From contig JAVKIP010000001.1 in NCBI GenBank assembly GCA_031459385.1, positions 224,001 through 288,000 on the forward strand: a stretch of 64,000 nucleotides of DNA. Direction: 5' to 3'. The stretch's first letter is position 1. Every line of letters starts with the position of its first letter. The notes below the pieces were generated by a model, which had not been told where the DNA came from, did not search any database, and saw only the letters and a program-made list of their open reading frames with translations. This document shows positions 46,664 through 64,000 of this stretch, in pieces. This DNA is from Candidatus Fervidifonticultor secundus. Lineage in GTDB: Bacteria > Sysuimicrobiota > Sysuimicrobiia > Sysuimicrobiales > Humicultoraceae. The position numbers and the translations under genes were made by a program.

Positions 46664-47923
46664 ATGCAGGTGGCAGTGATCGCCGACGACTTGACCGGGG
46701 CGTGCGCCACCGGTGCCCTCCTGGTGCCACTGGGCCGCGTGCAGGTCATCTGGGACGTCTCCCCGTCCTGGCTGCGGGCCGTGGGCAGGAGCGCGCCGGA
46801 GGCGCTCGTCGTCTGCACCGACTCGCGGCCCGCGCCGCCTGACGTCGCCGCGGGCCGCACGGTGGCCGCCGCGACCGCCCTGCGGGCGCTGGGCGCGGCG
46901 CTGGTGGCCAAACGCATCGACTCGACGCTGCGTGGGTGGATCGGGCAGGAACTGCGGGCGCTCCTCGAAGTGCTGCCAGGCCGCGCGGTCGTGGTGGCGG
47001 CCGCGCCCGCTGCGGGGCGCACGGTCACAGGCGGTGTGGTCCACGTGCACGGCGTGCCGCTCGATCGCGCCGAAGGCGTCCGCGGGCCCGATGGCCCCGC
47101 GCGCGCCCACGTCCCCACGCTGGTGGCGGCCCAGGCCGAGATGGACGTCGCCCACGTGCCGCTCGAGACGGTCCGCCAGGGTGGGCAGGCCGTGCGCGCC
47201 GTGCTCGAGGCGTTCCACGGCCGTATCGTCGTGGCCGACGCCGAGACCGACGCCGACCTGGCGCGCATCGCCCGCGCCTGCGACGGGCTGCCGGTCATCC
47301 CCACCGATCCGGGACCGTTCACCGCAGCCGTGGCGCGCCGCCGCGCTGCGGGCGCGGGCCCGCCAGGCGGTGGAGGCCATGGCCTCGTGCGCCCCACGGC
47401 CGTGCGGGTCCTGGTGCTGGCGGGGAGTCCCACGGCCCTGGTGGCGCGCCAGGTGGATGCGCTGGCGCGAGAGACGGGCACGGACGTCGTCCGGCTGGAT
47501 CCGGCGCGCGCGGCCGACCCCGCGCACCGTGCCGACCTGGCCGACCGGGCCCGCGGCCTGCTGGACCGCGCGGCGGTGGCCGTCGTCCATGCCAGCGCGG
47601 GCGACCACCCTGCTGCGCCCGGGCGTGCTGTGGCCGGTGCGCTCGGCGAGGTCGCCGCCCGCGTGCTGGAGGCCACGGCCCCGGGCCTGGGGCTGGTCGC
47701 CACCGGGGGCGACGTGGCGCTCGCGGTCTGCCGCGCGCTCGGCGCGAGCGCCATCGAGGTGCTGGGCGAGGTGCTCCCGTTGTGCGCGGCCGGGCGCCTC
47801 CTGTATGGTCGCCATGAGGGCACGCCGATCGTCACCAAGGGCGGGATGGTCGGCGCCGACGACGCGCTGGTGCGCGCTTGGCGCGCGCTCCGGGAAGGGT
47901 GGGTCCCTGCGTGGAGCCCGTGA
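46664..47923 (+). CDS. Four-carbon acid-sugar kinase (DUF1537; DtnK/DenK-like)
   Basis: IADDLTGA, KRIDSTLRG, TGGD, TKGG; coupled to a PdxA-type gene. Confidence 0.88.
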   Translation: MQVAVIADDLTGACATGALLVPLGRVQVIWDVSPSWLRAVGRSAPEALVVCTDSRPAPPDVAAGRTVAAATALRALGAALVAKRIDSTLRGWIGQELRALLEVLPGRAVVVAAAPAAGRTVTGGVVHVHGVPLDRAEGVRGPDGPARAHVPTLVAAQAEMDVAHVPLETVRQGGQAVRAVLEAFHGRIVVADAETDADLARIARACDGLPVIPTDPGPFTAAVARRRAAGAGPPGGGGHGLVRPTAVRVLVLAGSPTALVARQVDALARETGTDVVRLDPARAADPAHRADLADRARGLLDRAAVAVVHASAGDHPAAPGRAVAGALGEVAARVLEATAPGLGLVATGGDVALAVCRALGASAIEVLGEVLPLCAAGRLLYGRHEGTPIVTKGGMVGADDALVRAWRALREGWVPAWSP

Positions 47924-48897
47924 TCGGCGTGACGATGGGCGATCCGGCCGGCATCGGGCCGGAGATCGTGGCGAAAGCCGCCGTGCGGCCGGACGTGTTG
48001 GCGCACGCGCGCCCCCTGATCGTCGGCAGCGCCGCGCACCTGGCGCGGACCGTCGCCGCGCTGGGCCTGCGCGCCGACGTGGCAGTCGCCGGTGCGCCCG
48101 GGCCGGGGCGCATCGTCGTGCACGACGTGGCCATCCCGGCCCTCGACGGGCTGCGCATGGGCGTCGTGCAGGCCACGGCGGGCCGGGCGGCGGCCGCCTA
48201 TGTGGAGGCCGCGGTGCGCCTGGCGCTGGACGGTCGCGTCGCGGCCGTGGCGACGGCTCCCCTGCACAAGGAGGCGCTGTGGGCTGCGGGCTACCCGTAT
48301 CCCGGGCACACCGAGATGCTGGAAGCCCTGACGCAGAGCCCCTACAGCCTGACGATGTTCCAGGTACGGGGACTGCGCATCTTCTTCCTCACCCGCCACC
48401 TGGCGCTGCGCGAGGCGATCGCGCAGATCACGGCCGACCGCACGGTGCAGATGCTGGAGCGGATGCAGAACGCGCTGGCCCGCCTGGGAATGCCGCAGCC
48501 GCGGATCGCCGTGGCCGCGCTGAATCCCCACGCCGGGGAGGGCGGGCACCTGGGCACCGAAGAGCGCGAGCACTTAGGCCCGGCCGTTGCCGAGGCGCGG
48601 CGTCGCGGGCTGGATGTCACCGGGCCCGTGCCGGCCGATACCGTGTTCGCCCAGGCCCTCGAGGGACGCTACGACGCGGTGCTCGCGCTCTACCACGACC
48701 AGGGGCACATCGCCGCCAAGACCCTGGACTTCCACGGCACGGTGAGCGTGACCCTGGGCCTGCCCTTCATTCGCACGTCGGTCGACCACGGCACGGCGTT
48801 CGATATCGCGGGCAAGGGCGTCGCGCGCGAGGACAGCATGGCCGCAGCGATCGTGGCGGCGGCCCGGCTCGCGCGTGCGGGCGTGGTCGCCCGCTAG
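47911..48897 (+). CDS. pdxA2: PdxA-family dehydrogenase (PdxA2; threonate/erythronate 4-phosphate dehydrogenase-like)
   Basis: MGDPAGIGPE, GHTE, LNPHAGE, YHDQGH, RTSVDHGTA. Confidence 0.88.
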   Translation: MEPVIGVTMGDPAGIGPEIVAKAAVRPDVLAHARPLIVGSAAHLARTVAALGLRADVAVAGAPGPGRIVVHDVAIPALDGLRMGVVQATAGRAAAAYVEAAVRLALDGRVAAVATAPLHKEALWAAGYPYPGHTEMLEALTQSPYSLTMFQVRGLRIFFLTRHLALREAIAQITADRTVQMLERMQNALARLGMPQPRIAVAALNPHAGEGGHLGTEEREHLGPAVAEARRRGLDVTGPVPADTVFAQALEGRYDAVLALYHDQGHIAAKTLDFHGTVSVTLGLPFIRTSVDHGTAFDIAGKGVAREDSMAAAIVAAARLARAGVVAR

Positions 48898-51459: not shown

Positions 51460-52365
51460 CTACCGGTGCGGCGCGGGCCAGCGCGCCAGCGCCACCCCGG
51501 CCAGGATTACCACCGCGCCTGCCAGCTGCTGCAGCCCGAACGACTCGCGCAGCCCCAGCACCGCGGCGACGACGCCGACCACCGGCATCAGGTAGCTGTA
51601 GGCGGTCGCCCGCGTGGGGCCCAGCCGGCGGATGCCCTCGTACCAGCACAGGTAGCCCAGCGTGCCGGCGCCCAGCGCCGCGTAGAGCAGCGCGCTCCAG
51701 GCCGCGGGCGAGAGGGCCCACGACTGGCGGGCGAGCTCTGGCGCGCCGGCGAGCAGCAGCAGCACCGTGCCCGCGCTCATCGAGACCGCCATCACCGTCA
51801 GCGTGCTGTAGCGCCGGTACAGGGGAAAGATCATCACGGGCGTCACGCCGTACGACCACGCCGCCAGCAGGGTGAGCAGGTCGCCCCGCAGGTGGAGCCG
51901 CGAGAGGTGACCGCTGGCGTCCACCAGGACCGCCACCCCGAGCGCGGCCAGGCCGATGCCGGCCACCTGGCGCCCGGTGAGGCGCTCTGCGCCGGTGGCC
52001 CATACCAGCAGCGTCGTGATCACCGGCGAGGTGTTGATGATGAGCACCGAGTTGCTGGCGGTGGTGTCCTTCAGCCCCAGGCCGAAGAAGATCTGGTAGA
52101 GGCCCACGTGGCACAGGCCGACCACCACGGTCCGCGGGACGTCGCCGCGCGCCACGCGCAGCGGCTGGCGCAGCGCCGCCACCACCAGCGCCAGGGCCGC
52201 CGAGGCCAGCACGAACCGCACCGCGGCGAAGGCCAGCGGGGTCAGCTCGTCGTAGGCCGACTTGATGACGGCGAACGACGCGCCCCAGAGGACGACCGTG
52301 GTGAGGGCGAAGACGTCGCCGAGGCCGAACGGCCGGCCGGTGCGCGCTGGTGCGGCTGGCGCCAT
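51460..52365 (-). CDS. DMT/EamA family transporter
   Basis: WGASF..IK, two EamA repeats, LMPVVG. Confidence 0.92.
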   Translation of the reverse strand: MAPAAPARTGRPFGLGDVFALTTVVLWGASFAVIKSAYDELTPLAFAAVRFVLASAALALVVAALRQPLRVARGDVPRTVVVGLCHVGLYQIFFGLGLKDTTASNSVLIINTSPVITTLLVWATGAERLTGRQVAGIGLAALGVAVLVDASGHLSRLHLRGDLLTLLAAWSYGVTPVMIFPLYRRYSTLTVMAVSMSAGTVLLLLAGAPELARQSWALSPAAWSALLYAALGAGTLGYLCWYEGIRRLGPTRATAYSYLMPVVGVVAAVLGLRESFGLQQLAGAVVILAGVALARWPAPHR

Positions 52366-52741: not shown

Positions 52742-54208
52742 CTAGATGGCGATGAAGACGTTCTTCACCTCGGTGTACAGGTCCAGCGCGTGCATGCCCA
52801 GCTCGCGGCCGAACCCGCTCATCTTGAACCCGCCGAACGGCGCCTCCTGGTGCACGCTGTGGTTGGTGTTGATGCTGAGCACGCCGCTGCGGATCGCCTG
52901 TGCCATCCGCAGAGCCCGGCCCACGTCCCGCGTCCACACCGAGCCCGACAGGCCATAGGGCGAGTCGTTCACCATGCGCAGCGCGTCGGCCTCGTCGTCG
53001 AAGGGGATCAGGCAGGCCACCGGCCCGAAGATCTCCTCGCGGGCGACGCGCATCTCGTTGCGAGCCGCTACCAGCACCGTGGGCAGGAGGAACGCGCCCG
53101 CCGCCAGGCGCGGGTCGTCCGGCGGGGTGCCGCCGTAGGCCACGACGGCGCCTTCTTGGCGTCCCAGCTCGACGTAGCGCAGCACGTGGTCGCGCTGGGC
53201 CAGGGAGACCAGCGGCCCCATCTCGGTGGCCGCATCCAGCGGGTCGCCCACCCGCAGACGGCGCGCGCCGTCCACGAACAGCGCGGCGAAGCGGTCGTAG
53301 ACCGTCCGCTGCACGAAGACGCGGCTGCGGGCGCAGCAGTCCTGCCCGGCGTTGCCGTAGACCGCCAGCACCCCGGCCTGGGCGGCCCGCTCCAGGTCAG
53401 CGTCGGCGAAGATCACGTTGGGCGACTTGCCGCCGAGTTCCAGCGACACCCGGGTCATCGTCTCGGCAGCCAGCTTCATGATCTGGATGCCGGTGGTGGT
53501 CTCGCCGGTGAACGCCACCTTGCCCACCAGGGGGTGCGTGACGATGGCCGCGCCAACCGACGCCCCGGGACCCGTGACCACGTTGAGCACGCCCGGCGGC
53601 ACCCCGGCTTCCAGCGCCAGCGTTCCCAGCCGCAGCGCCGTCAGCGGCGTGTACGAGGCCGGCTTCAGGATCACGGCGTTGCCGGTGGCCAGCGCGGGCG
53701 CCACCTTCCACGAGGTGATGAGGAACGGGAAGTTCCAGGGGACGATGAGGCCCACGACACCGATGGGCTGACGCAGCGTGAAGTCCAGGCCGCGGTCGGC
53801 GACCGGGATCGTCTCGCCGAAGTGTTTGTTGGCGGCCCCCGCGTAGTACTCGAAGCAACCGGCCGCCGCCTCGACCTCGCCGCGCGCGTCGGCCAGCGTC
53901 TTGCCGCCCTGGCGCACCTCAAGGGTCGCCAGGTCCTCGGCGTGGCGGCGGATCGCTTCGGCCAGACGCGTCAGCACGCGGCCCCGCTCGGTCGCGCTCA
54001 GGCCGGCCCAGCGGCCGTCCTCGAACGCCTGCCAGGCGGCGCGCGCGGCGCGGTCCACGTCCTCGGGACCGGCCTGGGGCACCTCGGCGACGGCCGTGCC
54101 GGTGGCGGGGTCGGTGACCTCGAACGTCTTGTCGCCCAGCGCGTCCGTGGCCTCGCCCCCGATCAACATGGAGATCCGCATCCGCTGGACGCGCTGCTGT
54201 GTGCTCAT
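52742..54208 (-). CDS. Aldehyde dehydrogenase (PuuC/betaine-aldehyde-like)
   Basis: PWNFP, FTGET, LELGGKS, GQDCCA, EEIFGP. Confidence 0.93.
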
Positions 54209-54427
54209 CGGCTCGCCTCCCCCGGGGTCTGGCGAGAACTTCCTCCCCCGGCGCGCCGCACCCTGCGTCGCCCGGTGGCGGCAACCGGAGGCCTGGGGGG
54301 GCGCGAGGGGCTACCGGGTGCTGCCCGACCGTCGTGCTGCCGCGCGAAAGACGGTACAATAACACCCACGATCTGCGGCGCCGTACCGGGCACCCACGGC
54401 GGCTCGGTCGGATGCGAGGAGGCTTGG

Positions 54428-55294
54428 ATGCCACTGCGCTTCTGCATCATCAACGGCTATCCCGCGAAGAACCGCGAGGTGCTGCTCCAGGCGGGGCACT
54501 GCAGCGCCGACGAGATGTACGTCCGGGCGTTTCGGACGCTTGCGCCCGAGGCCCGGTGCGAAGTGCTCTACCTCGCCGATCTGGACGTGCCGGTCCCCGA
54601 CGACGATTGGATCGCGGGCTACGACGCCTTCCTGTGGACCGGCTCGAACCTGACGATCTACGACGACGATCCGCGCGTGCAGCGCCAGATCGCGTTCTGC
54701 CGGCGGATCTTCCAGGTCGGCCGGCCCCAGTGGGGCAGTTGCTGGGGCGTGCAGATGGCGGCGGTGGCCGCGGGCGGCGAGGTGTCGAAGAACCCGCGCG
54801 GCCGCGAGATGGCCTTCGCCAGGAAGATCCGCCTGACGCCCGAGGGGCGCGCCCACCCCATGTACCAGGGGAAGCCCGACGTCTTCGATGGGTTCATCTC
54901 GCACCTCGACGAGGTCACGCGCATCCCCGAGGGCGGCACGCTGCTGGCCACCAACGACCATACGCAGGTGCAGGCGCTGGAGGTCCGGTGGGGCCGCGGC
55001 GTCTTCTGGGCCACGCAGTACCACCCCGAGTACGACTTGGTGCAGATGACCCGCCTGCTCGTGGCGCGGGGGGAGCACTTGATCCAGGAGGGCTTCTTCG
55101 CCGACCGCGCAGCCCTCGAGCACCGGGTGGCGCGCATGGAGGCCCTGGCCCGCGATCCGTCGCGCAAGGACCTGCGCTGGGACCTGGCGATCGACGACGA
55201 TCTGCTCGACGAGCGGATTCGCTGGGCGGAGCTGCGGAACTGGCTGCAGGTGCTGGTGTTGCCGGCCGCCGGCCAGCGGGTGGAGCGCGTCTAG
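54428..55294 (+). CDS. Type 1 glutamine amidotransferase-like protein
   Basis: WTGS, GSCWG nucleophile elbow, QYHPE; TACAAT at 54355-54360. Confidence 0.88.
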   Translation: MPLRFCIINGYPAKNREVLLQAGHCSADEMYVRAFRTLAPEARCEVLYLADLDVPVPDDDWIAGYDAFLWTGSNLTIYDDDPRVQRQIAFCRRIFQVGRPQWGSCWGVQMAAVAAGGEVSKNPRGREMAFARKIRLTPEGRAHPMYQGKPDVFDGFISHLDEVTRIPEGGTLLATNDHTQVQALEVRWGRGVFWATQYHPEYDLVQMTRLLVARGEHLIQEGFFADRAALEHRVARMEALARDPSRKDLRWDLAIDDDLLDERIRWAELRNWLQVLVLPAAGQRVERV

Positions 55295-55329
55295 GCCGGC
55301 CCTGGGGCATCGTCACCTCCTGCTGGCCG

Positions 55330-56655
55330 TCAGCCCCCGCCCGTTTCCTCGCCCGTCGCAGGCGCCGCGGCGGGGGAGGTACCGGCGGCACGCCGCGGGC
55401 GTGCAGGCGCCAGGGCCACCAGTCCCACCAGCGGGCCCGCCGCCAGCAGCGCGAACGCCCATCCCCACCGGGCCGCAGCCGGCAGCCCGAGTCGCGTGCC
55501 CGCGTCGAGCGTCAGGCCCACGGCAGCAGGGGAGGCTGCGGTGGCCGCCCATCCCAGCAGCATCTGGACCGCGAACGCGCCACCGAGCGAGCGCGCAGGG
55601 ACGACCTCCATCAGCGCTGCCGGATACGACGGTGAGTCGGCCAGGCTCACCGTACCGTAGAGGAGCGCGACACCCGCGGTGAGCGCCACCGGCGCCGCGA
55701 CGAGCCACCCGAAGCAAAGCGAGCAGACCAGGCTCACCGCCAGCATGACCCTGGCCGCCGGCATGCGTCCCAGCCGGTCGGAGAGCCGGCCTCCTGCGAC
55801 CGCGCCGAGCGCGCCGCCGGCGCCGATCGCCGCTGCGGCCATCAGCCCGCCCCATGCCAGCACGGCGCGGTCGGCCTCGCCGCGGGCCTGGAGCGAGGCG
55901 ACCATGAACGGCGCGAGCCACGTCCACAGGCCGAACAGCTCCCAGTTGTGGCCGGTGTACGCCAGGATCACCCTGCGGGCCGGAGCGTTGCCGAGCACGT
56001 CGCGGGCGTAGCGCGACAGGGCCGCGGGCCCCGGCGGCGCCGGGAGCGGTACGGCCGGTACCTGCCACGCCATGACCAGCGCGCCCAGCACCTCGAGCAC
56101 GCCCACGGCCGCCATGGTGGCCCGCCAGCCGATGCGCGGGACCAGCACGCCGGCGTAGACCAGTGGCAGGGCATAGGCCGCGACGATCGTGGCGATGAAG
56201 ATGCCGGTGGCGCTTCCGCGCGAGGCACGGGGCACGGTGTCGGCGATCTGCTTGAGGGCGGGCAGGTAGAGCCCGCCGACCAGCACCCCGACCAGCATCC
56301 GCAGGGCCAGTCCCGAAGGGAAGTCGCGCGCGGCTGCGGCGAAGGCCAGGTCGCCGATCCCCACGAGCGCGGCCGAGGCTGCCATGATGGGCTTGCTCTG
56401 CACGCGGTCGAGCAGGAAGCCGATGGTCACGTACGCCGCCAGCGTGCCCAGCTGGAAGCCGCCCAGGATCACGCCGGCCTGCGCGGCCGAGAGGCCCCAC
56501 GCCGTGCCCAGCACCGGAATCAGCGCCGAGAACACCAGCCCGGTCTGGTGGCCGAGGAACTGGCCGACGCAGAGGGCGACGAAGCCGCGCACCCACATCC
56601 GGCTCCCGGCACCGGGCGCGGACACCGGCGCGTCACGCATCGGACGCCGGTTCAC
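55330..56655 (-). CDS. MFS transporter
   Basis: About 12 hydrophobic segments, GRLSDRLGR motif; start overlaps the kinase stop. Confidence 0.9.
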   Translation of the reverse strand: MNRRPMRDAPVSAPGAGSRMWVRGFVALCVGQFLGHQTGLVFSALIPVLGTAWGLSAAQAGVILGGFQLGTLAAYVTIGFLLDRVQSKPIMAASAALVGIGDLAFAAAARDFPSGLALRMLVGVLVGGLYLPALKQIADTVPRASRGSATGIFIATIVAAYALPLVYAGVLVPRIGWRATMAAVGVLEVLGALVMAWQVPAVPLPAPPGPAALSRYARDVLGNAPARRVILAYTGHNWELFGLWTWLAPFMVASLQARGEADRAVLAWGGLMAAAAIGAGGALGAVAGGRLSDRLGRMPAARVMLAVSLVCSLCFGWLVAAPVALTAGVALLYGTVSLADSPSYPAALMEVVPARSLGGAFAVQMLLGWAATAASPAAVGLTLDAGTRLGLPAAARWGWAFALLAAGPLVGLVALAPARPRRAAGTSPAAAPATGEETGGG

Positions 56656-57560
56656 GCATCGCGCGCGAGGGCCAGCCAGGCCGGGAGCCGGGGATCGTCC
56701 AGCGCCCGGCGGTATCGGGCGAAGTGCGCATCGGCGCGGGCGGCGAAGTCGGGCGCGCTGGTGGCCAGGGCCTGCGCGGCCAGGTACCAGGTGGCATCCC
56801 GCATCTCTGCCAGGAGCCGCATGAGCTTGAGGCGGGCCATCCTAGCGGGCGTCACCCCGCCGAAGTAGGCGGTCAGCAGCGCGGCGTCGTCGGCGTCGCC
56901 GGGCGCATGGTAGATGGCGAAGGTGGCTAGGTCAAAGTACGGGTCGCCCAGGCCCGCGTACTCCCAGTCCACGATCCAGACCCGCGCGCCATCGTCGACG
57001 AGGTTGGCACCCCACAGGTCGTTGTGGCAGGGGACCAGCCGGGGCTCCGACTCCAGGACGGCTGCCACCTCGGCGAGGCGGGCGGTCAGGACCGGCAGAT
57101 CGCCGGGGGTCGGCACGCCCCGCGCACGCGCAGCGTCCAGGTAGGCCTCGGTCGTGCGCAGCGGAGAGAACCTCCCGGGGACGGGCGGCGGGCTCTCGTG
57201 GTAGCAGCGGACGGCTGCCACGACGCGCCGGACGACTGCCGGCGCCGCGGGCTCGCCGGGCGCCAGCGTCCGGCCGGGCACGAAGCGCGTGACCATGAGG
57301 CCGGCCTCGGGCGCGACGTGCACGACCTCGGGCGCCGCGCCGGCGCGGCTCGCGGCCAGCGCGCAGGCACGTTCCCGCTGGCGGTCGATCCCGAGCACCT
57401 CGGCCGCCGGCGCGAGCAGGCGCACCACGAAGGCCTCGCCGTCCACGTCCACGCGGTAGGTGCGGTTGGTGAGGCCGCCGGCGAGCGGTGCGATGCGCAC
57501 CGCGCGGGCCGTCCGCCACGCGGGAATCCGGGTGATGGCCTGCGCGATCTCGTCGCACAC
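56652..57560 (-). CDS. Choline/ethanolamine kinase family phosphotransferase
   Basis: GGLTN, Brenner motif CHNDL...N, VDWEYAG. Confidence 0.88.
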   Translation of the reverse strand: MCDEIAQAITRIPAWRTARAVRIAPLAGGLTNRTYRVDVDGEAFVVRLLAPAAEVLGIDRQRERACALAASRAGAAPEVVHVAPEAGLMVTRFVPGRTLAPGEPAAPAVVRRVVAAVRCYHESPPPVPGRFSPLRTTEAYLDAARARGVPTPGDLPVLTARLAEVAAVLESEPRLVPCHNDLWGANLVDDGARVWIVDWEYAGLGDPYFDLATFAIYHAPGDADDAALLTAYFGGVTPARMARLKLMRLLAEMRDATWYLAAQALATSAPDFAARADAHFARYRRALDDPRLPAWLALARDA

Positions 57561-57570
57561 GGCCGCGTTT

Positions 57571-57849
57571 TCACTCCCGCGCGCTCGCCCGGAACGCGTC
57601 GAACTGCGCCTCCAGTTCCGCCGCCACCGCCGCCGCCACGGCCTCGGGCTCCCCCTCCCGCTCCAGCTCCGGACCCACGTGCCAGCCCTGCAGGTAGGCG
57701 TCGGTGCCGGTCAGGCCCTGGCGCATCGCGGCCGCGTCGATGAGTCCCTGGAACCGCGGGTCGAGGGGGCGTCGCACCCGCACCGTCGCGTCGAACGCCT
57801 CGACCTGCGCCGGGATCGTCTGCCAGTAGGTGATGCGGTAGCGGGCCAT
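57571..57849 (-). CDS. Small Virulence_fact (Cvf-type) domain protein
   Basis: YW..IPAQV...RFQ..IDAAAM...DAYL..W pattern. Confidence 0.75.
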   Translation of the reverse strand: MARYRITYWQTIPAQVEAFDATVRVRRPLDPRFQGLIDAAAMRQGLTGTDAYLQGWHVGPELEREGEPEAVAAAVAAELEAQFDAFRASARE

Positions 57850-57856
57850 CGCGCCC

Positions 57857-58528
57857 TCAGCCCTGGCCCGCGGCCCGCATCTGCTCCACGAAGCGGATGG
57901 CCAGGGTGACGCCGGCCTGCGCGGTCTCGCCGTAGCCGTCGGCGGCGATCCTGCGCGCGAACGCCTCGGTCACCGGCCCGCCGCCCACCAGGATCGTGTG
58001 CCGCTCGCGGATGCCGCGGGCCTCGAAGAACTCGATGACCTCACGCATCGACGGCATCGTGGTGGTCATCAGCGCCGAGAGCCCCACGATCTGCGCGCCG
58101 GTCTCCTCCGCCTTCTCGACGAACTTCCCCGGGTGCACGTTCACGCCCAGGTTGTGGACCTCGAACCCGGCTACTTTCAGGAGCGTCCCGAACAGGTCCT
58201 TGCCGATCGAGTGCACGTCGCCCTTGACCGTACCGATCACCGCCACGCCGCGCTTCTGGTAGCCGGCGCCCTGGGCCAGGATCGCCGGTTCGAGCACCTT
58301 CATCGCCTCCAGGAAGACCTTGGCGGCCATCATGAGCTCCGGCAGGAAGATCTCCATGGCCTGGAACTTCTCGCCGATGACGGCGATCCCGGGCGAGAGA
58401 CCCTCGTCGATCAGCCGCAGCGGCGGCAGGCCCCGCTCCAGGCCCTGCCGGACCAGCGCGACGCCGCGGTCGGCGTCGTAGTCGAGCACCGCCTGCTTCA
58501 GGCCCTCCAGGAGGGCAGCCTCGTCCAT
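57857..58528 (-). CDS. Cognate corrinoid (B12-binding) protein, MtmC/MtbC-like
   Basis: Cap domain FLPELM, GTVKGDVHSIG (DxHxxG), SALMTTT, VGGG. Confidence 0.94.
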   Translation of the reverse strand: MDEAALLEGLKQAVLDYDADRGVALVRQGLERGLPPLRLIDEGLSPGIAVIGEKFQAMEIFLPELMMAAKVFLEAMKVLEPAILAQGAGYQKRGVAVIGTVKGDVHSIGKDLFGTLLKVAGFEVHNLGVNVHPGKFVEKAEETGAQIVGLSALMTTTMPSMREVIEFFEARGIRERHTILVGGGPVTEAFARRIAADGYGETAQAGVTLAIRFVEQMRAAGQG

Positions 58529-58585
58529 TCATGAACCTCCCCACGCGCCGCCGCCGCACGGCCCGCGCCGTGCGGCTCCGTGCGG

Positions 58586-59959
58586 CTAGCGCAGCGGCAG
58601 CCCCAGCCGGCGCAGGTCCTCCTTGGCCCGGGCGTAGATCTCGTAGTGCCAGGGTGCCGGCTCCAGCGTGTCCACATCGTAGCAGTCCTGGAACCGGTGG
58701 CCCTCCGGCGCGCCTTCCAGGTGCGGTTCGTAGCGGGCGAGTAGCGCCTGCACGATCTCGTTGCCCTGCTCGCGGGTCATGCCCGCGGCCGCGTGGGCCA
58801 CCTCGCACGCGAAGCGCATCTCCAGCGGGCTGTAGTTGTCCATCAGGATGCCCTTGGCCGGATGGACCGTCTCGATGTTGGCGCCCGAGACGACGTCGGC
58901 GATGATGCGGGCCGCGGTCTCGTCGTAGAGTTGTGGCGTGGCGGTCCCGGCCGCGGCGTAGCCCAGGTCGAAGTAGGGGAAGGCCATGTTGCGGCTGACG
59001 GCCTGGCAGCCCAGCGCGACGCTGGTCAGCACCTCGCGGGCCGTGGAGTTGGACTGGGTGATGTGCAGAGAGTAGAGCAGGTGGTAGGTGGCGCCTACCA
59101 GCAGGGGCCCGGCCATGATGTACGCCGCGTTGAGCACCGCCGAGCCAATGACCCCGCCGGCGAACCCACCGTAGATGGCGCCGGCCGCGAACCCCACGTT
59201 GCCCCCGAACGAGAGCACGGCGGCGGTCTTGTTGAGGACGTTGTAGTCTAGCTTCAGCTCCGACAGCGACACGATCAGCCAGCCGTCGCTGGGGCGCAGG
59301 CCGTACTCGCGGTTCGTCACGGCCAGCACGCCCATGGGCGACGCGGAGGTGGACAGCAGGTTGATGATGGGCAACCCCGGCCGCCCCGCACGGCGCATCG
59401 ACTCGCGCCCCAGCCGCACCGACTGGATGGCGGCGAAGATCTCCGAGGGGGCGCCGGCCTGGACCGGCATGCCGCGGATGCGGGTCAGCGCCGGGATGCT
59501 CATGGAGTCGGCCTGCGGGATGCGCGCGTAGCCTTCCACTACGGCCGAGGCGATCTCGTCGGAGGAGACCGGGATTCCGCCACCCACGTGGCACCACGGT
59601 CGCCGCGGGTCCTCGGGCCGGCGCGGCCGCATGGCCCCCCGGTCTTTCCCCTCGCCCAGCACGCACTCCCGCGGCGCGTGGTGGATCGCGTCGTCGAGTT
59701 CCTCCCGGGTGAACGTGATGACCCGGTTCGTGTCGGGGCAGTAGCAGCCTGTGTCCACCAGGAACTCCCTGGCGGCGTGGAAGATGCGGTCGGCCAGGTC
59801 GTCGTCCCACGGCACGACCACGTCCTTCGGCGGGGCCTTCAGCCCGTACCGGGCGACGGCCTTCGCCAGGTTCGGCACGAACCGCTGCATGTCGAACTCC
59901 TCCGGTGCGACGATCGGGCCGGTCGTCGCCCGCCGGCAGATCTCCAGGAAGGGCACCAT
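58586..59959 (-). CDS. mtmB: Monomethylamine:corrinoid methyltransferase (MtmB) homologue lacking pyrrolysine
   Basis: RATTGP, DDLADRIF.AA, YCPDTNRVI.FT.EE, AGRPG, IYGGFAGG, C-terminal FQDCYDV.TL.P; 457 aa open frame with no internal TAG. Confidence 0.85.
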   Translation of the reverse strand: MVPFLEICRRATTGPIVAPEEFDMQRFVPNLAKAVARYGLKAPPKDVVVPWDDDLADRIFHAAREFLVDTGCYCPDTNRVITFTREELDDAIHHAPRECVLGEGKDRGAMRPRRPEDPRRPWCHVGGGIPVSSDEIASAVVEGYARIPQADSMSIPALTRIRGMPVQAGAPSEIFAAIQSVRLGRESMRRAGRPGLPIINLLSTSASPMGVLAVTNREYGLRPSDGWLIVSLSELKLDYNVLNKTAAVLSFGGNVGFAAGAIYGGFAGGVIGSAVLNAAYIMAGPLLVGATYHLLYSLHITQSNSTAREVLTSVALGCQAVSRNMAFPYFDLGYAAAGTATPQLYDETAARIIADVVSGANIETVHPAKGILMDNYSPLEMRFACEVAHAAAGMTREQGNEIVQALLARYEPHLEGAPEGHRFQDCYDVDTLEPAPWHYEIYARAKEDLRRLGLPLR

Positions 59960-59992
59960 GCGTCTCCTCCTCGGCCCCGTGGGCAGCACCCG

Positions 59993-60907
59993 CTAGCGAC
60001 GGGCGCGCACGACCGCGGCGATGCGCCGGATGTGCTCGGGCGTGCTGCCGCAGCAGGCGCCCACGATGCGCGCGCCGGCCGCGACGATCGCCGGGTAGCC
60101 GGCGGCCATCGCGTCCGGGGCCAGGTCGTAAACCGTGCGGTCGTCGACGATCTTCGGCATGCCGGCGTTGGGATAAGCGACCAGCGGTCGGTCGGTGGCC
60201 GTGCGCATCCCGGCGATGATGACCGCAGCGCGCGCCGGGCCGCCCTCGCCGCAGTTGCAGCCGACGATGTCGGCGCCTGCCTCCGCCAGCACGCGCGCGG
60301 CCTCCGCCGGCGTCGAGCCCCAGAGGGTGCGGTCCATCTGCCGGGCCGCATTGTACTGGAAGAACATGGTGGCCATTACCGGCAGGCCCGTGGTCTCCTT
60401 GGCGGCCCGGATGGCGGCGACCGCCTCGTCGGGTACCATCATCGTCTCTACCGCGAGCAGGTCCACGCCCCCGTCGGCCAGCGCCATGGCCTGCTCGGCG
60501 AAGCTGGCGCGCATCTCGTCGACGGAGACGTCGCCCATCGCCGCCAGGGTGTCGGGCAGGTGCCCGGTGGGCCCCATGGAGCCCGCAACATACCTGCCCG
60601 GCGGACAGGCCGCACGCGCCAGCCTGGCCCCCAGGTAGTTCAGGTCGCGCACCCGCGCCTCGAGGCCGTAGGGCGCCAGTTTGAGCCGCGTGCCGCCGAA
60701 GGTGTTGGTCTCGACGATGTCCGCCCCGGCGGCGAGGTAGGCGCGGTGGATGCCCTCCACGACGTCGGCGCGGGTCTCGTTCCATAGCTCCGGGCAGGCG
60801 CCCTGCGTCAGGCCCGCCTCGAAGAGCATGGTGCCCATGGCGCCGTCGAGGATCAGGACCTCCGACGTCAGGCGTTCCAGCAGTTCCCGTCCGCGCGCGT
60901 CCCCCAT
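59993..60907 (-). CDS. Stand-alone homocysteine S-methyltransferase (MetH Hcy-binding module)
   Basis: ILDGAMGT, AGADIVETNTFG, Zn ligands GCNC and GACCG, YPNAG.P. Confidence 0.93.
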   Translation of the reverse strand: MGDARGRELLERLTSEVLILDGAMGTMLFEAGLTQGACPELWNETRADVVEGIHRAYLAAGADIVETNTFGGTRLKLAPYGLEARVRDLNYLGARLARAACPPGRYVAGSMGPTGHLPDTLAAMGDVSVDEMRASFAEQAMALADGGVDLLAVETMMVPDEAVAAIRAAKETTGLPVMATMFFQYNAARQMDRTLWGSTPAEAARVLAEAGADIVGCNCGEGGPARAAVIIAGMRTATDRPLVAYPNAGMPKIVDDRTVYDLAPDAMAAGYPAIVAAGARIVGACCGSTPEHIRRIAAVVRARR

Positions 60908-61038
60908 CGCTGTGTCCCTCTGGCTTGCGCGCCCGTGCGTCCACCGAGCCCACGTCTCGTACGTGGTGCCCGCGCATCCGCCCCGCCAAGACGCGCCCGG
61001 CCCGATCCGCTGGGCGTCCGGCGCGGCCCACCCTTTCG

Positions 61039-62907
61039 CTACCGAAACTGCAGCGCCTCCAGGAACACGTCCTGGAACTCCGGGTGCGTGGCGAGCGGCA
61101 CGTGCCGGATCCGGCCCGCCAGCGCCTCCGCCCGACGCCGCTCGGTCTCGGAGACCAGCGCCAGCTGCGCGCCCAGCCCGGCCGCGTTGCCCACGTAGTG
61201 TACGCGCTCCTGGGGCAGGCGCGGGATGAGTCCGATGCGCGCAGCGCTGTCGACGTTCAGGTAGTTCCCGAACCCGCCGGCCAGCAGCAGTTCCGCCAGC
61301 GCGCCGTCCGGCACGTCTGCCAGCCGCTGGAGCATGGCGATGCCGCTGCGGATCGCGCCCTTCGCGAGCTGCACCTGACGGATATCCGCCTGCGTCAGCA
61401 CCACGGCCTGGCCGGTGGCGGTCTCCGCCGCCGGCGCCACGAGGAAGGCGGGCAGGCCGTCGGGCAGGACGATCACCCGACGGCGCAGCGCGTCCGACAC
61501 GCCGGGCGGTGGCGAAGGATGGAGACGCCCGGAGGGGTCCACGATGCCTGCGTCCAGCAGCCCCGCGAGCAGGTCCAGCATACCCGAGCCGCACAGGCCG
61601 GCGGGCGCCACGTCGCCGATGACGTGATAGCGCACGTCGCGCCCGACATGCACCCGGTCCACGGCGCCGCGGGCCGCGCGCATGCCGCACCGCAGCTGCG
61701 CGCCTTCCAGCGCGGGGCCGGCGGGTGCCGAGCAGGCGACGAGCTCGCCGGCGCTGCCCAGTACCATCTCGCCGTTGGTCCCGATGTCCACCGCCAGGCG
61801 GGGCGGGCCGTCCGCGTCCAGCCGCGTGGCCAGGGCCATAGCCGTGGCGTCGGCCCCGACGAAGCCGGCCACGATCGGCAGCAGGAAGACCGGGGTTGCC
61901 GCGGGCAGCCGCAGGCCGACTTCGTGGGCGCTGAGGCGCAGCCCGCGGCGGACCCCCGGTGCGTAGGGTGCCTGCCCGACGTACGTGGGGTCCAGGCCCA
62001 GGAAGAGGTGGTGCATGACCGTGTTGCCGACCACGACGACTTTGTAGATGCGCTCGCGCGCGACCGCGGCCTGCCGGCACGCGTCGTCGATCTGGGCGTT
62101 CAGGTGCTGCAGCAACCGCACGTGCAGGCGCCGCACGTTGGCGGGGTGCTCCTGCGCGAACGCGATGCGCGACATCAGGTCGCCGCCGTAGGCGGCCTGG
62201 GGATTCAGCCCCGAGACCGTCGCCGCCACCGCGCCGCTTTGGAGGTCCACCAGGTAGCCGACGACGGTGGTGGTGCCGATGTCGAACGCCAGCCCGAACG
62301 CCTCTGCGCGCGTGTCACCGGGCTCCACGGCCAGCAGCAGGTTGCCGAAGAGAGCCACCGTAACTCCCGCCGGGCCGGCCCGCAGGAGCGACGGCAGCCG
62401 GCGCAGGGCGTCGAGGGCCACCTCCGTCCCCTCGGGCCGCGCGACGCCCAGCGGCCGCAGGAGCTCCTCCAGGTCAGAGGTGGAGCGCGTCTCGTCGGCC
62501 GGTGGAGCCGGGGCCACGAACGTCTTGACGAGCCCCGAGTCGAGGACGATCTCGTGCGCCGCCGGCAGCGTCGCCGTGGCGGCCAGGATCTGGAACGAAG
62601 CTTCCTCGAAGACCGGCGCCACCAGCGCGGTGAGATCGGTCCACGCCTCGGCCTGACAGGCCAGCCGGTAGCGGTCGCGCACCGCGTCGTCGCCGAGCTG
62701 CACGCGCTCGGCCAGCGAGGCCGGTGGCGGGGTGCCCGCGGTGATCTGCACGCGGCAGCTGCGGCAGCGGCCGCGCGCACCGCAGGTGGCCACGATCTCC
62801 ACCCCTGCCCGCTGCGCGGCGCGCAGCAGCGTCGTGCCCGCCTGGACGGCGACCGTCTGCCGTCCGGGCGCGAAGGTGATCGTCACCGGCTGGGTCACGG
62901 GCGGCAC
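61039..62907 (-). CDS. RACo/RamA-type ATP-dependent reductive activator of corrinoid proteins ([2Fe-2S] plus ASKHA)
   Basis: CGARGRCRSC...RLAC, DIGTTT, YGGD.MSRI, FVGAD, DIGTNGE, AGPALEG, LAGGFG, GNAA. Confidence 0.93.
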   Translation of the reverse strand: MPPVTQPVTITFAPGRQTVAVQAGTTLLRAAQRAGVEIVATCGARGRCRSCRVQITAGTPPPASLAERVQLGDDAVRDRYRLACQAEAWTDLTALVAPVFEEASFQILAATATLPAAHEIVLDSGLVKTFVAPAPPADETRSTSDLEELLRPLGVARPEGTEVALDALRRLPSLLRAGPAGVTVALFGNLLLAVEPGDTRAEAFGLAFDIGTTTVVGYLVDLQSGAVAATVSGLNPQAAYGGDLMSRIAFAQEHPANVRRLHVRLLQHLNAQIDDACRQAAVARERIYKVVVVGNTVMHHLFLGLDPTYVGQAPYAPGVRRGLRLSAHEVGLRLPAATPVFLLPIVAGFVGADATAMALATRLDADGPPRLAVDIGTNGEMVLGSAGELVACSAPAGPALEGAQLRCGMRAARGAVDRVHVGRDVRYHVIGDVAPAGLCGSGMLDLLAGLLDAGIVDPSGRLHPSPPPGVSDALRRRVIVLPDGLPAFLVAPAAETATGQAVVLTQADIRQVQLAKGAIRSGIAMLQRLADVPDGALAELLLAGGFGNYLNVDSAARIGLIPRLPQERVHYVGNAAGLGAQLALVSETERRRAEALAGRIRHVPLATHPEFQDVFLEALQFR

Positions 62908-62953
62908 GCGGGAGCAGTGCGCATCAGGTCTGCGACCTGGCCGCAGGGCAGCC

Positions 62954-63589
62954 TCAGGGACGACCGGCGGCGACCAGACCGTACAGCCCCGAGACAGACT
63001 TGCCCGGCCGCATCACGCAATGGTCAGTGAGGCGCACCGCCACCAGGCCCTCGCCGAACGCGTCGAAGAGCGCGCGCTGCTGCTCCAGCGGCCAGCCGGC
63101 GAAGCCGGGCGCCAGGCGGGCCGTGAGCCGGTAGCCCCGCCGGCGGGCGTCAGCAGCCAGCCGCTGGCGCACGTCCCGGAGGAGGGCGTCGATGGCCACC
63201 CAGCCGCCGGTGTCGAGCAGGAGGCCTTCGACCACGTGCTCTTCGCGCATCAGGGCCTGGGCGCGCCGTTCGAGCGCGCTGCCGATGGTGAGCACCAGCA
63301 GCACGACTTCGGCGGCGCCGTCGAGCCGACGCGCCAGCGCCTGACTGTGGAACGCCACGCCGTCGTCGAGCAGCACCGCGCCCTGCGGGTCCACGCCGTG
63401 CACACGCGCGCGCCGCAGCCACCCGCGCGGCTCGAGCAGCGTCTCCGCCTGCGCGGCCATCCGCCGCGCAACCTCGCGGAGTTGGGGCGCCACCCGCTCG
63501 GGCCTGCGGTACTTGTGCAGGCGCAGGATGAGGGTAGCGTCGATGCGCGGCGGCCGCAGGCGCAGTTCCTCGATCATGTCTTGCCCCAT
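62954..63589 (-). CDS. Stand-alone methionine synthase reactivation-domain-like protein
   Basis: LTIG..LE, LLLD..G, RLAPGF..WPL..Q, M.P.KSVSG pattern. Confidence 0.8.
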   Translation of the reverse strand: MGQDMIEELRLRPPRIDATLILRLHKYRRPERVAPQLREVARRMAAQAETLLEPRGWLRRARVHGVDPQGAVLLDDGVAFHSQALARRLDGAAEVVLLVLTIGSALERRAQALMREEHVVEGLLLDTGGWVAIDALLRDVRQRLAADARRRGYRLTARLAPGFAGWPLEQQRALFDAFGEGLVAVRLTDHCVMRPGKSVSGLYGLVAAGRP

Positions 63590-63856
63590 GACGTCACCCG
63601 GCGGGCGATCACATCCCTGGCGTTCGCCCTGGCGCGACGCGCTCCTACTCCCTGCCGAGACCTCGGGGAGGCGCGCGGGTGCGGTGCCCGGCAGGCTCGT
63701 GTTCCCTGCGGCAGCGTCGGACGCCGCAGGGAGCGCGTCGGGCGTCACAGCCGCGGTCACGGCGGATGGATGGGTCGGCACCATCGTTGTGAGTGTGCGA
63801 CCGGGACCCGGGCGCGGCAATCACCGGTTCCGGGGACGCCGCCGGCGCCGGTTCCA

Positions 63857-64000
63857 CTACTTCTGCAGGTACCGGATCGCGGCCTCGGTGCGCGTCCGCA
63901 CCTGCAGCTTGGCGAAGATGCTGCGCAAGTGGTGGTGGACCGTCCAGCTGCTGATGCCCAGGCGGGCAGCGATCTCCCTGTCGAGGTAGCCCTTGCTCAG
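63857..64000 (-). CDS. LuxR/NarL-type HTH regulator, C-terminal end (runs off window)
   Basis: LSKGYLDREIAARLGISSWTVHHHLRSIFAKLQVRTRTEAAIRYLQK*. Confidence 0.88.
   Translation of the reverse strand: MSKGYLDREIAARLGISSWTVHHHLRSIFAKLQVRTRTEAAIRYLQK

Follow-up and report, generated by a model that had tools for sequence, protein, structure and literature searches.

Why would a corrinoid-dependent methyl-transfer operon end in a choline-type kinase and a transporter, and what would such a kinase phosphorylate? The question arises in a stretch of 64,000 nucleotides from Candidatus Fervidifonticultor secundus (assembly GCA_031459385.1, contig JAVKIP010000001.1, positions 224,001–288,000), here called the window, in which eight closely packed minus-strand genes run from 63589 down to 55330. 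The last two encode a choline/ethanolamine-kinase-family phosphotransferase and a major facilitator superfamily (MFS) permease, and the string includes a homologue of the monomethylamine methyltransferase MtmB that is free of pyrrolysine (Pyl). An earlier note on this DNA had suggested that the permease imports an N-methylated amino alcohol, that the kinase traps it and that the resulting phospho-ester is the methyl donor of the MtmB homologue.

The kinase and the permease form a conserved, tightly coupled pair that probably belongs to N-methyl-amine catabolism. We propose that this translationally coupled pair is an import-and-phosphorylate cassette, and that its substrate is a small choline-like or dimethylethanolamine-like N-methylated amino alcohol. 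Within the phylum the cassette is a portable unit, found wherever examined among N-demethylation and one-carbon genes; in the window's genome it closes, at the 3′ end, a corrinoid operon resembling a split methionine synthase. The further proposal, that the phospho-ester is the substrate of the MtmB homologue, is a plausible one to which we would give slightly less than an even chance.

The kinase and its transporter partner

The kinase scores 91.6 bits against the Pfam family APH (PF01636) and 45.6 bits against Choline_kinase (PF01633, cut-off 29). Among solved structures it comes closest to 3DXQ, described as a 'choline/ethanolamine kinase family protein' (E 1.2e-35), and to LicA, a choline kinase (4R77, E 7.2e-12). 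The motifs CHNDL and DWEYAG, named in the earlier note for its choline-type kinase, lie at residues 178–182 (window 57015–57029) and 198–203 (window 56952–56969), and together with the Choline_kinase match above cut-off they bear out that assignment. Residues 178–186, CHNDLWGAN, contain the Brenner phosphotransferase motif, written (CS)HNDhX3N in the LicA paper (PMC4364537). The Mg-binding aspartate of DWEY and the P-loop GGLTN are both present; judged by these motifs, the catalytic apparatus is intact.

The presumed substrate pocket is less canonical. The choline-kinase motif stretch, VWIVDWEYAGLGDPYFDLATFAIY, has VD in place of ID, G in place of the fixed N and Y in place of the final E, and the N-to-G change is common to all 29 aligned kinases. 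Like LicA and 3DXQ, the kinase has the fold family, the Brenner motif and the DxEY Mg site, and it keeps the choline-cage residues Tyr197 and Trp251 of LicA (positions taken from a pairwise alignment only). Unlike LicA, it has Gly for the Asn of the choline-kinase motif, Ala for Trp254 and Arg for Tyr268, and two further choline-binding positions, Glu213 and Val178, are occupied by Tyr and Trp. Most kinase relatives keep a Tyr at the Tyr268 position; the window's kinase does not. The phosphocholine made by LicA serves cell-surface decoration and not catabolism.

The nearest named NCBIfam model is that of the pre-guanitoxin N-oxide kinase GntI (NF041256), a full-length match at 223.3 bits versus a cut-off of 357, so the protein is not a member. 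Protein homologues carry generic names such as 'thiamine kinase-like enzyme', 'phosphotransferase' and 'choline/ethanolamine kinase family protein', and a tblastn search of a plasmid collection with the kinase gave no match at 1e-15. The first of these names, together with 78.1 bits against the thiamine kinase ThiK model TIGR02721, would suit a role in cofactor salvage, in which the corrinoid system would be supplied by a kinase acting on an unrelated precursor such as thiamine or the cobamide linker aminopropanol. The TIGR02721 score is far below the cut-off of 299.45, however, and that against PRK10271 is 33.8 versus 206; the kinase is not a member of either family. No thiamine or cobamide genes adjoin it, and kinase–MFS modules occur beside demethylase genes in 18 genomes that lack the corrinoid operon. 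Given these ThiK scores and this demethylase setting, cofactor salvage is very improbable and was rejected.

The kinase and MFS genes meet at a junction (56633–56660, minus strand) that contains the 9-mer GATGCGTGA twice, as a direct repeat with a period of 19 nucleotides. Copy 1 holds the kinase stop codon and copy 2 holds an ATG (56640–56638) that is the likely start of the permease gene, giving an N terminus resembling those of the orthologues and an 11-nucleotide gap after the kinase. The alternative start, GTG 56655, gives a 4-nucleotide GTGA overlap with the kinase gene. Measured from the final base of the kinase stop codon in 14 orthologous kinase–MFS pairs, the MFS start lies 7 nucleotides upstream in 12, so that the genes overlap by 8 nucleotides, at −10 in one and at +7 in the other. 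As the stop/start overlap is kept in 12 of the 14 pairs, the tight coupling is conserved and not a matter of chance. The overlap coupling originally described for the window holds among most of the orthologues; in the window itself, the 4-nucleotide overlap is one possible reading and the 11-nucleotide gap the other. The repeat seems to have arisen by a small duplication within an ancestral 8-nucleotide stop/start overlap (ATGnnTGA), which it broke apart.

A tree of 29 kinases, from which one duplicate row and kinases shorter than 230 residues were dropped, separates KIN1 (19 rows, the window's kinase included) from KIN2 (10 rows, support 100/100). An MFS gene lies immediately downstream of 14 of the 19 KIN1 kinases, and the KIN2 paralogues follow an ABC ATPase gene in six cases out of ten and an MTHFR-like gene in three. 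Kinase–transporter pairing is a conserved unit, the KIN2 paralogue being likewise paired with an ABC importer.

Setting and distribution of the cassette

The setting of the kinase was compared in a sample of 94 genomes of the phylum, the window's own (G000) included. Locus genes were called with a GC3-based script and clustered by BLAST single linkage, and the clusters were named via Pfam and NCBIfam. Loci L001–L004 and L010–L013 lie on the same contigs as G002, G020, G021, G022, G006, G003, G023 and G019, and were counted once.

A demethylase gene accompanies the kinase even where no MtmB-like gene is present. Of 15 kinase loci in genomes that lack MtmB, 13 hold a gene of one of two kinds: a dimethylglycine-dehydrogenase-like (DMGDH-like) protein of about 800 residues with DAO, FAO_M and GCV_T domains, or a 381-residue GcvT-family protein (DmdA/GcvT-like) whose best model is the DMSP demethylase DmdA, at 264 bits and below cut-off. 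The two remaining loci are contigs of only 7.6 and 5.4 kb. Genes for MTHFR-like, SDR, aldehyde dehydrogenase (ALDH) and class-I glutamine-amidotransferase-like (GATase-like) proteins are often added at the kinase loci of MtmB-less genomes. In the window's genome, an 806-residue DMGDH-like protein (DAO+FAO_M+GCV_T) is encoded about 1.4 kb past the window end (G000:C1:289396-291792; L043:3376-5796), divergently from a LuxR-type regulator gene that precedes the corrinoid operon.

One-carbon genes vary among the relatives. A pterin-binding (PF00809) methyltransferase is encoded upstream of the operon in L001, L010, L011 and L013; it is joined by an MTHFR-like gene in L001 and L013 and by a formate–tetrahydrofolate (THF) ligase gene in L001. 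Neither the pterin-binding nor the MTHFR-like gene of the relatives was found to have a homologue in the window's genome, which is 97.6% complete and whose sole PF00809 match lies elsewhere, on C11; this leaves the homocysteine methyltransferase as the one acceptor module of the locus.

Among the 94 phylum genomes, the kinase was matched in 28 and the MtmB-like protein in 12, closely in 11 of them and at 33% identity in the twelfth. Of the 11 genomes with a close MtmB-like gene, ten carry the kinase as well; the exception, G022, is 59% complete. The two genes are at most 1.4 kb apart in G000, G001, G002 and G003, 2.8–7.7 kb apart in G007 and G021, and 26 kb apart in G019; they lie on separate contigs in G006, G020 and G023. 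The string MtmB–corrinoid protein–PF13769–kinase–MFS recurs in L001, L011, L042 and L046. A metagenome survey mapped 17 close loci, among which L046 repeats the window's string, L055 and L060 have the kinase upstream and divergent (in L060 as a fragment at the contig end) and L059 has the order PF13769–MFS–ALDH without a kinase. Seven are of a kinase-free DMGDH–MtmB–corrinoid protein type (L052, L053, L054, L056, L057, L058 and L061, with short flanks only in L058 and L061), and six are too short to classify.

Several of the counts weigh against the phospho-ester as the general donor of MtmB-like proteins. The MtmB-like gene is missing from 18 of the 28 kinase-bearing phylum genomes (the unpublished G016 and G024, which belong to the 18, were used for that count alone). 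Outside the phylum, five genomes labelled Methylomirabilota/NC10 (G094–G098; L005–L009; completeness not given) encode MtmB-like proteins 81–84% identical to that of the window; none of the five has a kinase match at E ≤ 1e-5, and none has a Choline_kinase profile match above cut-off. A DMGDH-like gene flanks the MtmB-like gene in all five and in six metagenome loci, and indeed in almost every related locus. The MFS genes of L002 and L059 come straight after the PF13769 gene, with no kinase between them, and the genomes counted are related, hence non-independent samples. The co-conservation of kinase and MtmB-like gene on which the earlier note had staked its proposal is thus seen among MtmB-bearing genomes of the phylum and fails both among the other kinase-bearing genomes and outside the phylum; the link is not obligate. 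MFS homologues 56–62% identical to the window's permease occur in four of the five kinase-free genomes (L067–L070), divergently paired with DUF362 genes in all four loci; the closest homologues in G094–G098 do not stand beside MtmB, and these loci give no pathway context.

The same counts would fit an arrangement in which the two modules have separate substrates. The MtmB homologue would then take a non-phosphorylated quaternary amine (choline, or glycine betaine via the ALDH) and pass its methyl group on to methionine as BHMT or MtgBCDE do, and the kinase–MFS pair would serve the DMGDH-like/DmdA-like branch, merely fused to the operon end in this lineage. Each module does occur without the other, gene order around the operon is fluid among the mapped loci, the ALDH comes near the betaine-aldehyde dehydrogenase (BADH) model (522 bits versus a cut-off of 668.6), and the split-MetH architecture parallels that of MtgBCDE in Ruegeria pomeroyi (PMC12478193). 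We nevertheless consider separate substrates unlikely: gaps of 7–10 nucleotides and same-strand packing place the kinase in the corrinoid transcription unit in four genomes, and the kinase is kept by nearly every MtmB-bearing genome of the phylum.

The operon and its flanks

The genes of the string and those downstream of it are collected in Table 1.

Table 1. Genes of the corrinoid operon, in order of transcription, and of its downstream flank (window coordinates).
Feature	Coordinates	Strand	Evidence and remarks
MetH activation-domain-like protein, first in string	62954..63589	(-)	Pfam Met_synt_B12 22.5 bits, below cut-off 25; start uncertain, open reading frame reaches 63820
RACo-type corrinoid reductive activase (2Fe-2S + ASKHA)	61039..62907	(-)	Pfam RACo_C_ter 257.9, Raco_middle 186, Fer2 48.1 bits
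Homocysteine S-methyltransferase-family protein (PF02574), methyl acceptor module	59993..60982	(-)	Pfam S-methyl_trans 248.7 bits; start uncertain, 60907 by gene caller
Pyl-free MtmB homologue, presumed donor-specific corrinoid methyltransferase	58586..59989	(-)	Pfam MtmB PF05369 300.1 bits (cut-off 25)
Corrinoid (B12-binding) protein	57857..58528	(-)	Pfam B12-binding 92.2, B12-binding_2 67.6 bits
Small PF13769 ('Virulence_fact') protein, 92 residues	57571..57849	(-)	Pfam 56.3 bits
Choline/ethanolamine-kinase-family phosphotransferase, KIN1 type, 302 residues	56652..57560	(-)	Pfam APH + Choline_kinase
MFS permease, last in string	55330..56655	(-)	Pfam MFS_1 PF07690 105 bits (cut-off 33.4); start GTG 56655 or ATG 56640
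Class-I glutamine-amidotransferase/peptidase-C26-like protein (GATase-like), context	54428..55294	(+)	Pfam GATase 49.7 bits; convergent with MFS; start uncertain
Aldehyde dehydrogenase (ALDH), context	52742..54208	(-)	Pfam Aldedh 581.8 bits
EamA-family transporter, context	51460..52365	(-)	Pfam EamA 158.3 bits

The MtmB homologue has an open frame without an in-frame stop. Its only Pfam match is MtmB, which sets it apart from the MttB superfamily; it matches the MtmB structure 1L2Q at E 1.4e-58, with an Ile aligned to the pyrrolysine position, and is 32–34% identical to the proteins of archaeal and clostridial MtmB-type loci. A search for PylS in the window's genome gave no match above cut-off (21.5 versus 178). 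Neither the in-frame TAG nor the genomic Pyl system of a Pyl-dependent monomethylamine methyltransferase MtmB is therefore found.

Several partner proteins fall below the cut-offs of their best NCBIfam models: the RACo protein reaches 383.6 bits against AcsV, the homocysteine S-methyltransferase-family protein 220 against BHMT and 205 against MetH, and the corrinoid protein 194.8 against pyl_corrinoid and 192.9 against MtgC. No NCBIfam subfamily model was reached by the permease. The adjacency of the MetH-activation-like gene and RACo is kept in related loci. The PF13769 gene, which had been overlooked in the gene order first given, sits between the corrinoid protein and kinase genes with gaps of 7 and 10 nucleotides, and occupies the equivalent position in L001, L002, L003, L010, L011, L046–L049, L055 and L059. 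The kinase and MFS genes were rightly placed last: both open reading frames lie where they had been described and, as the next gene (GATase-like) is convergent, they close the string. A promoter and terminator scan of 54300–64000 returned one promoter-like site, inside the kinase gene, and no terminators; at the window's G+C content of about 72% it is uninformative.

Downstream of the string, the GATase-like gene adjoins the kinase or ALDH in L003, L027, L041 and L042. The ALDH scores 541 bits against HpaE which, like its match to BADH, is below cut-off, and it is a recurrent neighbour of the kinase–MFS module in the neighbourhood maps. The EamA-family transporter gene is also found near MFS or ALDH genes in L029 and L059. 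Farther off (window 46664–48897, plus strand), a gene for a PdxA-family dehydrogenase comes after one whose product resembles four-carbon acid-sugar kinases (SBD_N + NBD_C). About 17–24 kb past the window end, at G000:C1:304788-311875 (L043/L044), PhnW and PhnU2/T2/S2, all above their NCBIfam cut-offs, form with an ALDH a cluster for 2-aminoethylphosphonate uptake and catabolism; a 120-residue remnant of a KIN2-like kinase adjoins it.

Phosphorylation before demethylation

A precedent for such a route exists in Eubacterium limosum. There, according to Jiang et al. 2025 (PMC12155760), choline is phosphorylated by MthK, and MthB, of the MttB superfamily, methylates its corrinoid protein from phosphocholine only, which the authors present as the first case of a substrate modified prior to demethylation by that superfamily. 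As this route is proven, a phosphorylate-then-demethylate mechanism is of a known kind. By published description, the window resembles MthK–MthB–MthC–MthA in that a kinase with a choline-kinase motif is encoded beside corrinoid methyltransferase genes; phosphorylation of an amino alcohol would likewise be followed by transfer of an N-methyl group to a corrinoid. The kinase gene stands on the operon's strand with gaps of 7–10 nucleotides, and the adjacency is present in four phylum genomes. The window differs in having a methyltransferase of the MtmB family (PF05369) rather than the MttB superfamily, in having a homocysteine methyltransferase as acceptor where E. limosum uses THF via the pterin-binding MthA, and in the orientation of its kinase gene, which is co-directional and followed by the MFS gene, whereas that of MthK is divergently transcribed.

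The split methionine synthase with a donor module, MtgBCDE of R. pomeroyi (Mausz et al. 2025; PMC12478193), offers a second comparison. Like it, the window encodes separate corrinoid-binding (PF02310) and homocysteine-binding (PF02574) proteins with a donor-specific methyltransferase, and in the relatives L001, L010, L011 and L013 the likeness extends to a pterin-binding protein and a MetF-like enzyme. The window's locus, unlike MtgCDE, has no pterin-binding PF00809 partner, and the MtgBCDE donor module differs in being an MttB-type protein, MtgB, that serves glycine betaine without a kinase.

The third comparison concerns the MtmB homologue itself. MtqB/MtqC of Methanococcoides methylutens Q3c, described by Kashyap et al. 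2026 (PMC13044021) as the first function for a Pyl-free MtmB, demethylate free tetramethylammonium and choline. Likened by description, both systems pair an MtmB homologue that lacks Pyl with its own corrinoid protein, but MtqB acts on quaternary amines, choline among them, without a kinase and with coenzyme M as the methyl acceptor, and the window's operon has a kinase. As the Pyl-free MtqB acts on free choline, the missing Pyl needs no phosphate to explain it, and the suggestion in the earlier note that phosphorylation is what makes Pyl dispensable becomes unnecessary.

With these precedents, the route that we favour would run as follows. The substrate would be imported by the MFS permease and phosphorylated by the kinase with ATP. 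The Pyl-free MtmB homologue would then demethylate the phospho-ester at its (quaternary) nitrogen and load the methyl group onto the corrinoid protein in its Co(I) state, and the PF02574 protein would hand this group to homocysteine, yielding methionine, with RACo keeping the corrinoid reduced. The DMGDH-like flavoenzyme, encoded divergently past the window end, may strip the remaining methyl groups. We infer from gene content and precedent the identity of the substrate, its import ahead of phosphorylation, and the phospho-ester, rather than the free or an oxidised compound, as the donor used by the MtmB homologue. Taken from import through phosphorylation to demethylation, the scheme is tentative and somewhat likelier to fail in one of its parts than to hold throughout.

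To the points against it from the distribution of the genes must be added the pocket of the kinase, which deviates from the choline-kinase motif at two fixed positions and keeps just two of the four LicA aromatic-cage residues, and the free choline and tetramethylammonium taken by MtqB, the only characterised Pyl-free MtmB (PMC13044021). This precedent, together with the kinase-free orthologues, weighs against an obligate dependence on the phospho-ester. Two absences count on the same side: no phospho-lyase-like gene adjoins the window's operon, and the window's genome has no orthologue of a PHP/CehA-McbA-type metallohydrolase, possibly a phosphatase. The distribution of the latter elsewhere speaks for the scheme: orthologues (at least 61% identity) occur solely in seven kinase-bearing genomes, in five of which they adjoin the kinase or MFS gene; loci in which it stands beside both are L038/L039 (G007), L041 (G006), L042 (G001) and L029 (G017), and include a congener of the window's genome.

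Demethylation might instead come first. The MtmB homologue, acting as MtqB does, and the DMGDH-like enzyme would strip the free amino alcohol, the kinase would be an ethanolamine or amino-alcohol kinase, and its product would be split by a phospho-lyase or phosphatase, with the aldehyde passing to the adjacent ALDH. This order would suit the recurrence of ALDH beside the kinase and MFS genes, the retention of MtmB-like and DMGDH-like genes by the kinase-free genomes, and a class-III aminotransferase-like gene in L010 and L040, a family that includes phospho-lyases. It would also suit the use of free choline by MtqB (PMC13044021). Yet the class-III aminotransferase-like gene is present in only two of the mapped loci, with HemL as its best NCBIfam match, and not beside the window's operon; both kinase paralogues adjoin importers and no lyase. 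Demethylation ahead of phosphorylation is, on this evidence, rather unlikely.

Against this background the proposal in the earlier note survives in part. The kinase family, the pairing with a transporter, the N-demethylase and one-carbon setting and the MthK/MthB precedent (PMC12155760) all favour it; the obligate tie to MtmB and the explanation for Pyl have fallen away. In the library searched, no paper names both MtmB and choline kinase, and none was found to describe a kinase gene adjoining one of the MtmB family. The main texts of two phylum-level papers (PMC11604079 and PMC11962464) make no mention of methylamine, choline, corrinoid, betaine or dimethylglycine. The preprint of Kountz and Balskus (PMC10418091) was set aside as not relevant: MtmB is absent from its main text and its kinases are unrelated.

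A broader scheme can be drawn, although it is doubtful. A PhnS2-like (aminoethylphosphonate-type) ABC binding protein, at 242–265 bits and below cut-off, is encoded near the MtmB-like gene in the kinase-free genomes and in G007; the window's genome itself has the PhnS2/T2/U2–PhnW–ALDH cluster described above. As a lead only, one may speculate that this would suit a methyl donor bearing phosphate or phosphonate, whether taken up ready-made or produced by the kinase, which could reconcile a phospho-ester donor with the kinase-free orthologues. The cassette might then be the entry to an undescribed phospho-ester route for lipid head-group amines, from phosphocholine through phospho-dimethylethanolamine and phospho-methylethanolamine to phosphoethanolamine, in which the MtmB-like, DmdA/GcvT-like and DMGDH-like proteins, of unrelated types, would all take substrates that carry a phosphate or phosphonate. 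The MtmB homologue would transfer methyl from phosphocholine (or trimethyl-aminoethylphosphonate) to the corrinoid, so that choline methyl groups reach methionine directly, and in the kinase-free relatives the PhnS2-like ABC system would bring in the phosph(on)ate form.

To our knowledge, MtqB, reported in 2026, is the one Pyl-free MtmB with a known function, and MthK/MthB, reported in 2025 and using another methyltransferase superfamily, is the one known kinase-dependent route of corrinoid demethylation. Should a phospho-ester be what the MtmB homologue uses, phosphorylating the substrate would emerge as a convergent, general means of fitting quaternary amines with an acidic handle for corrinoid methyltransferases. 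The wider result is that the kinase–transporter cassette travels with three kinds of N-demethylase; should the proposed route hold, choline-type lipid head groups would feed straight into the making of methionine in a phylum of hot springs that is still uncultured.

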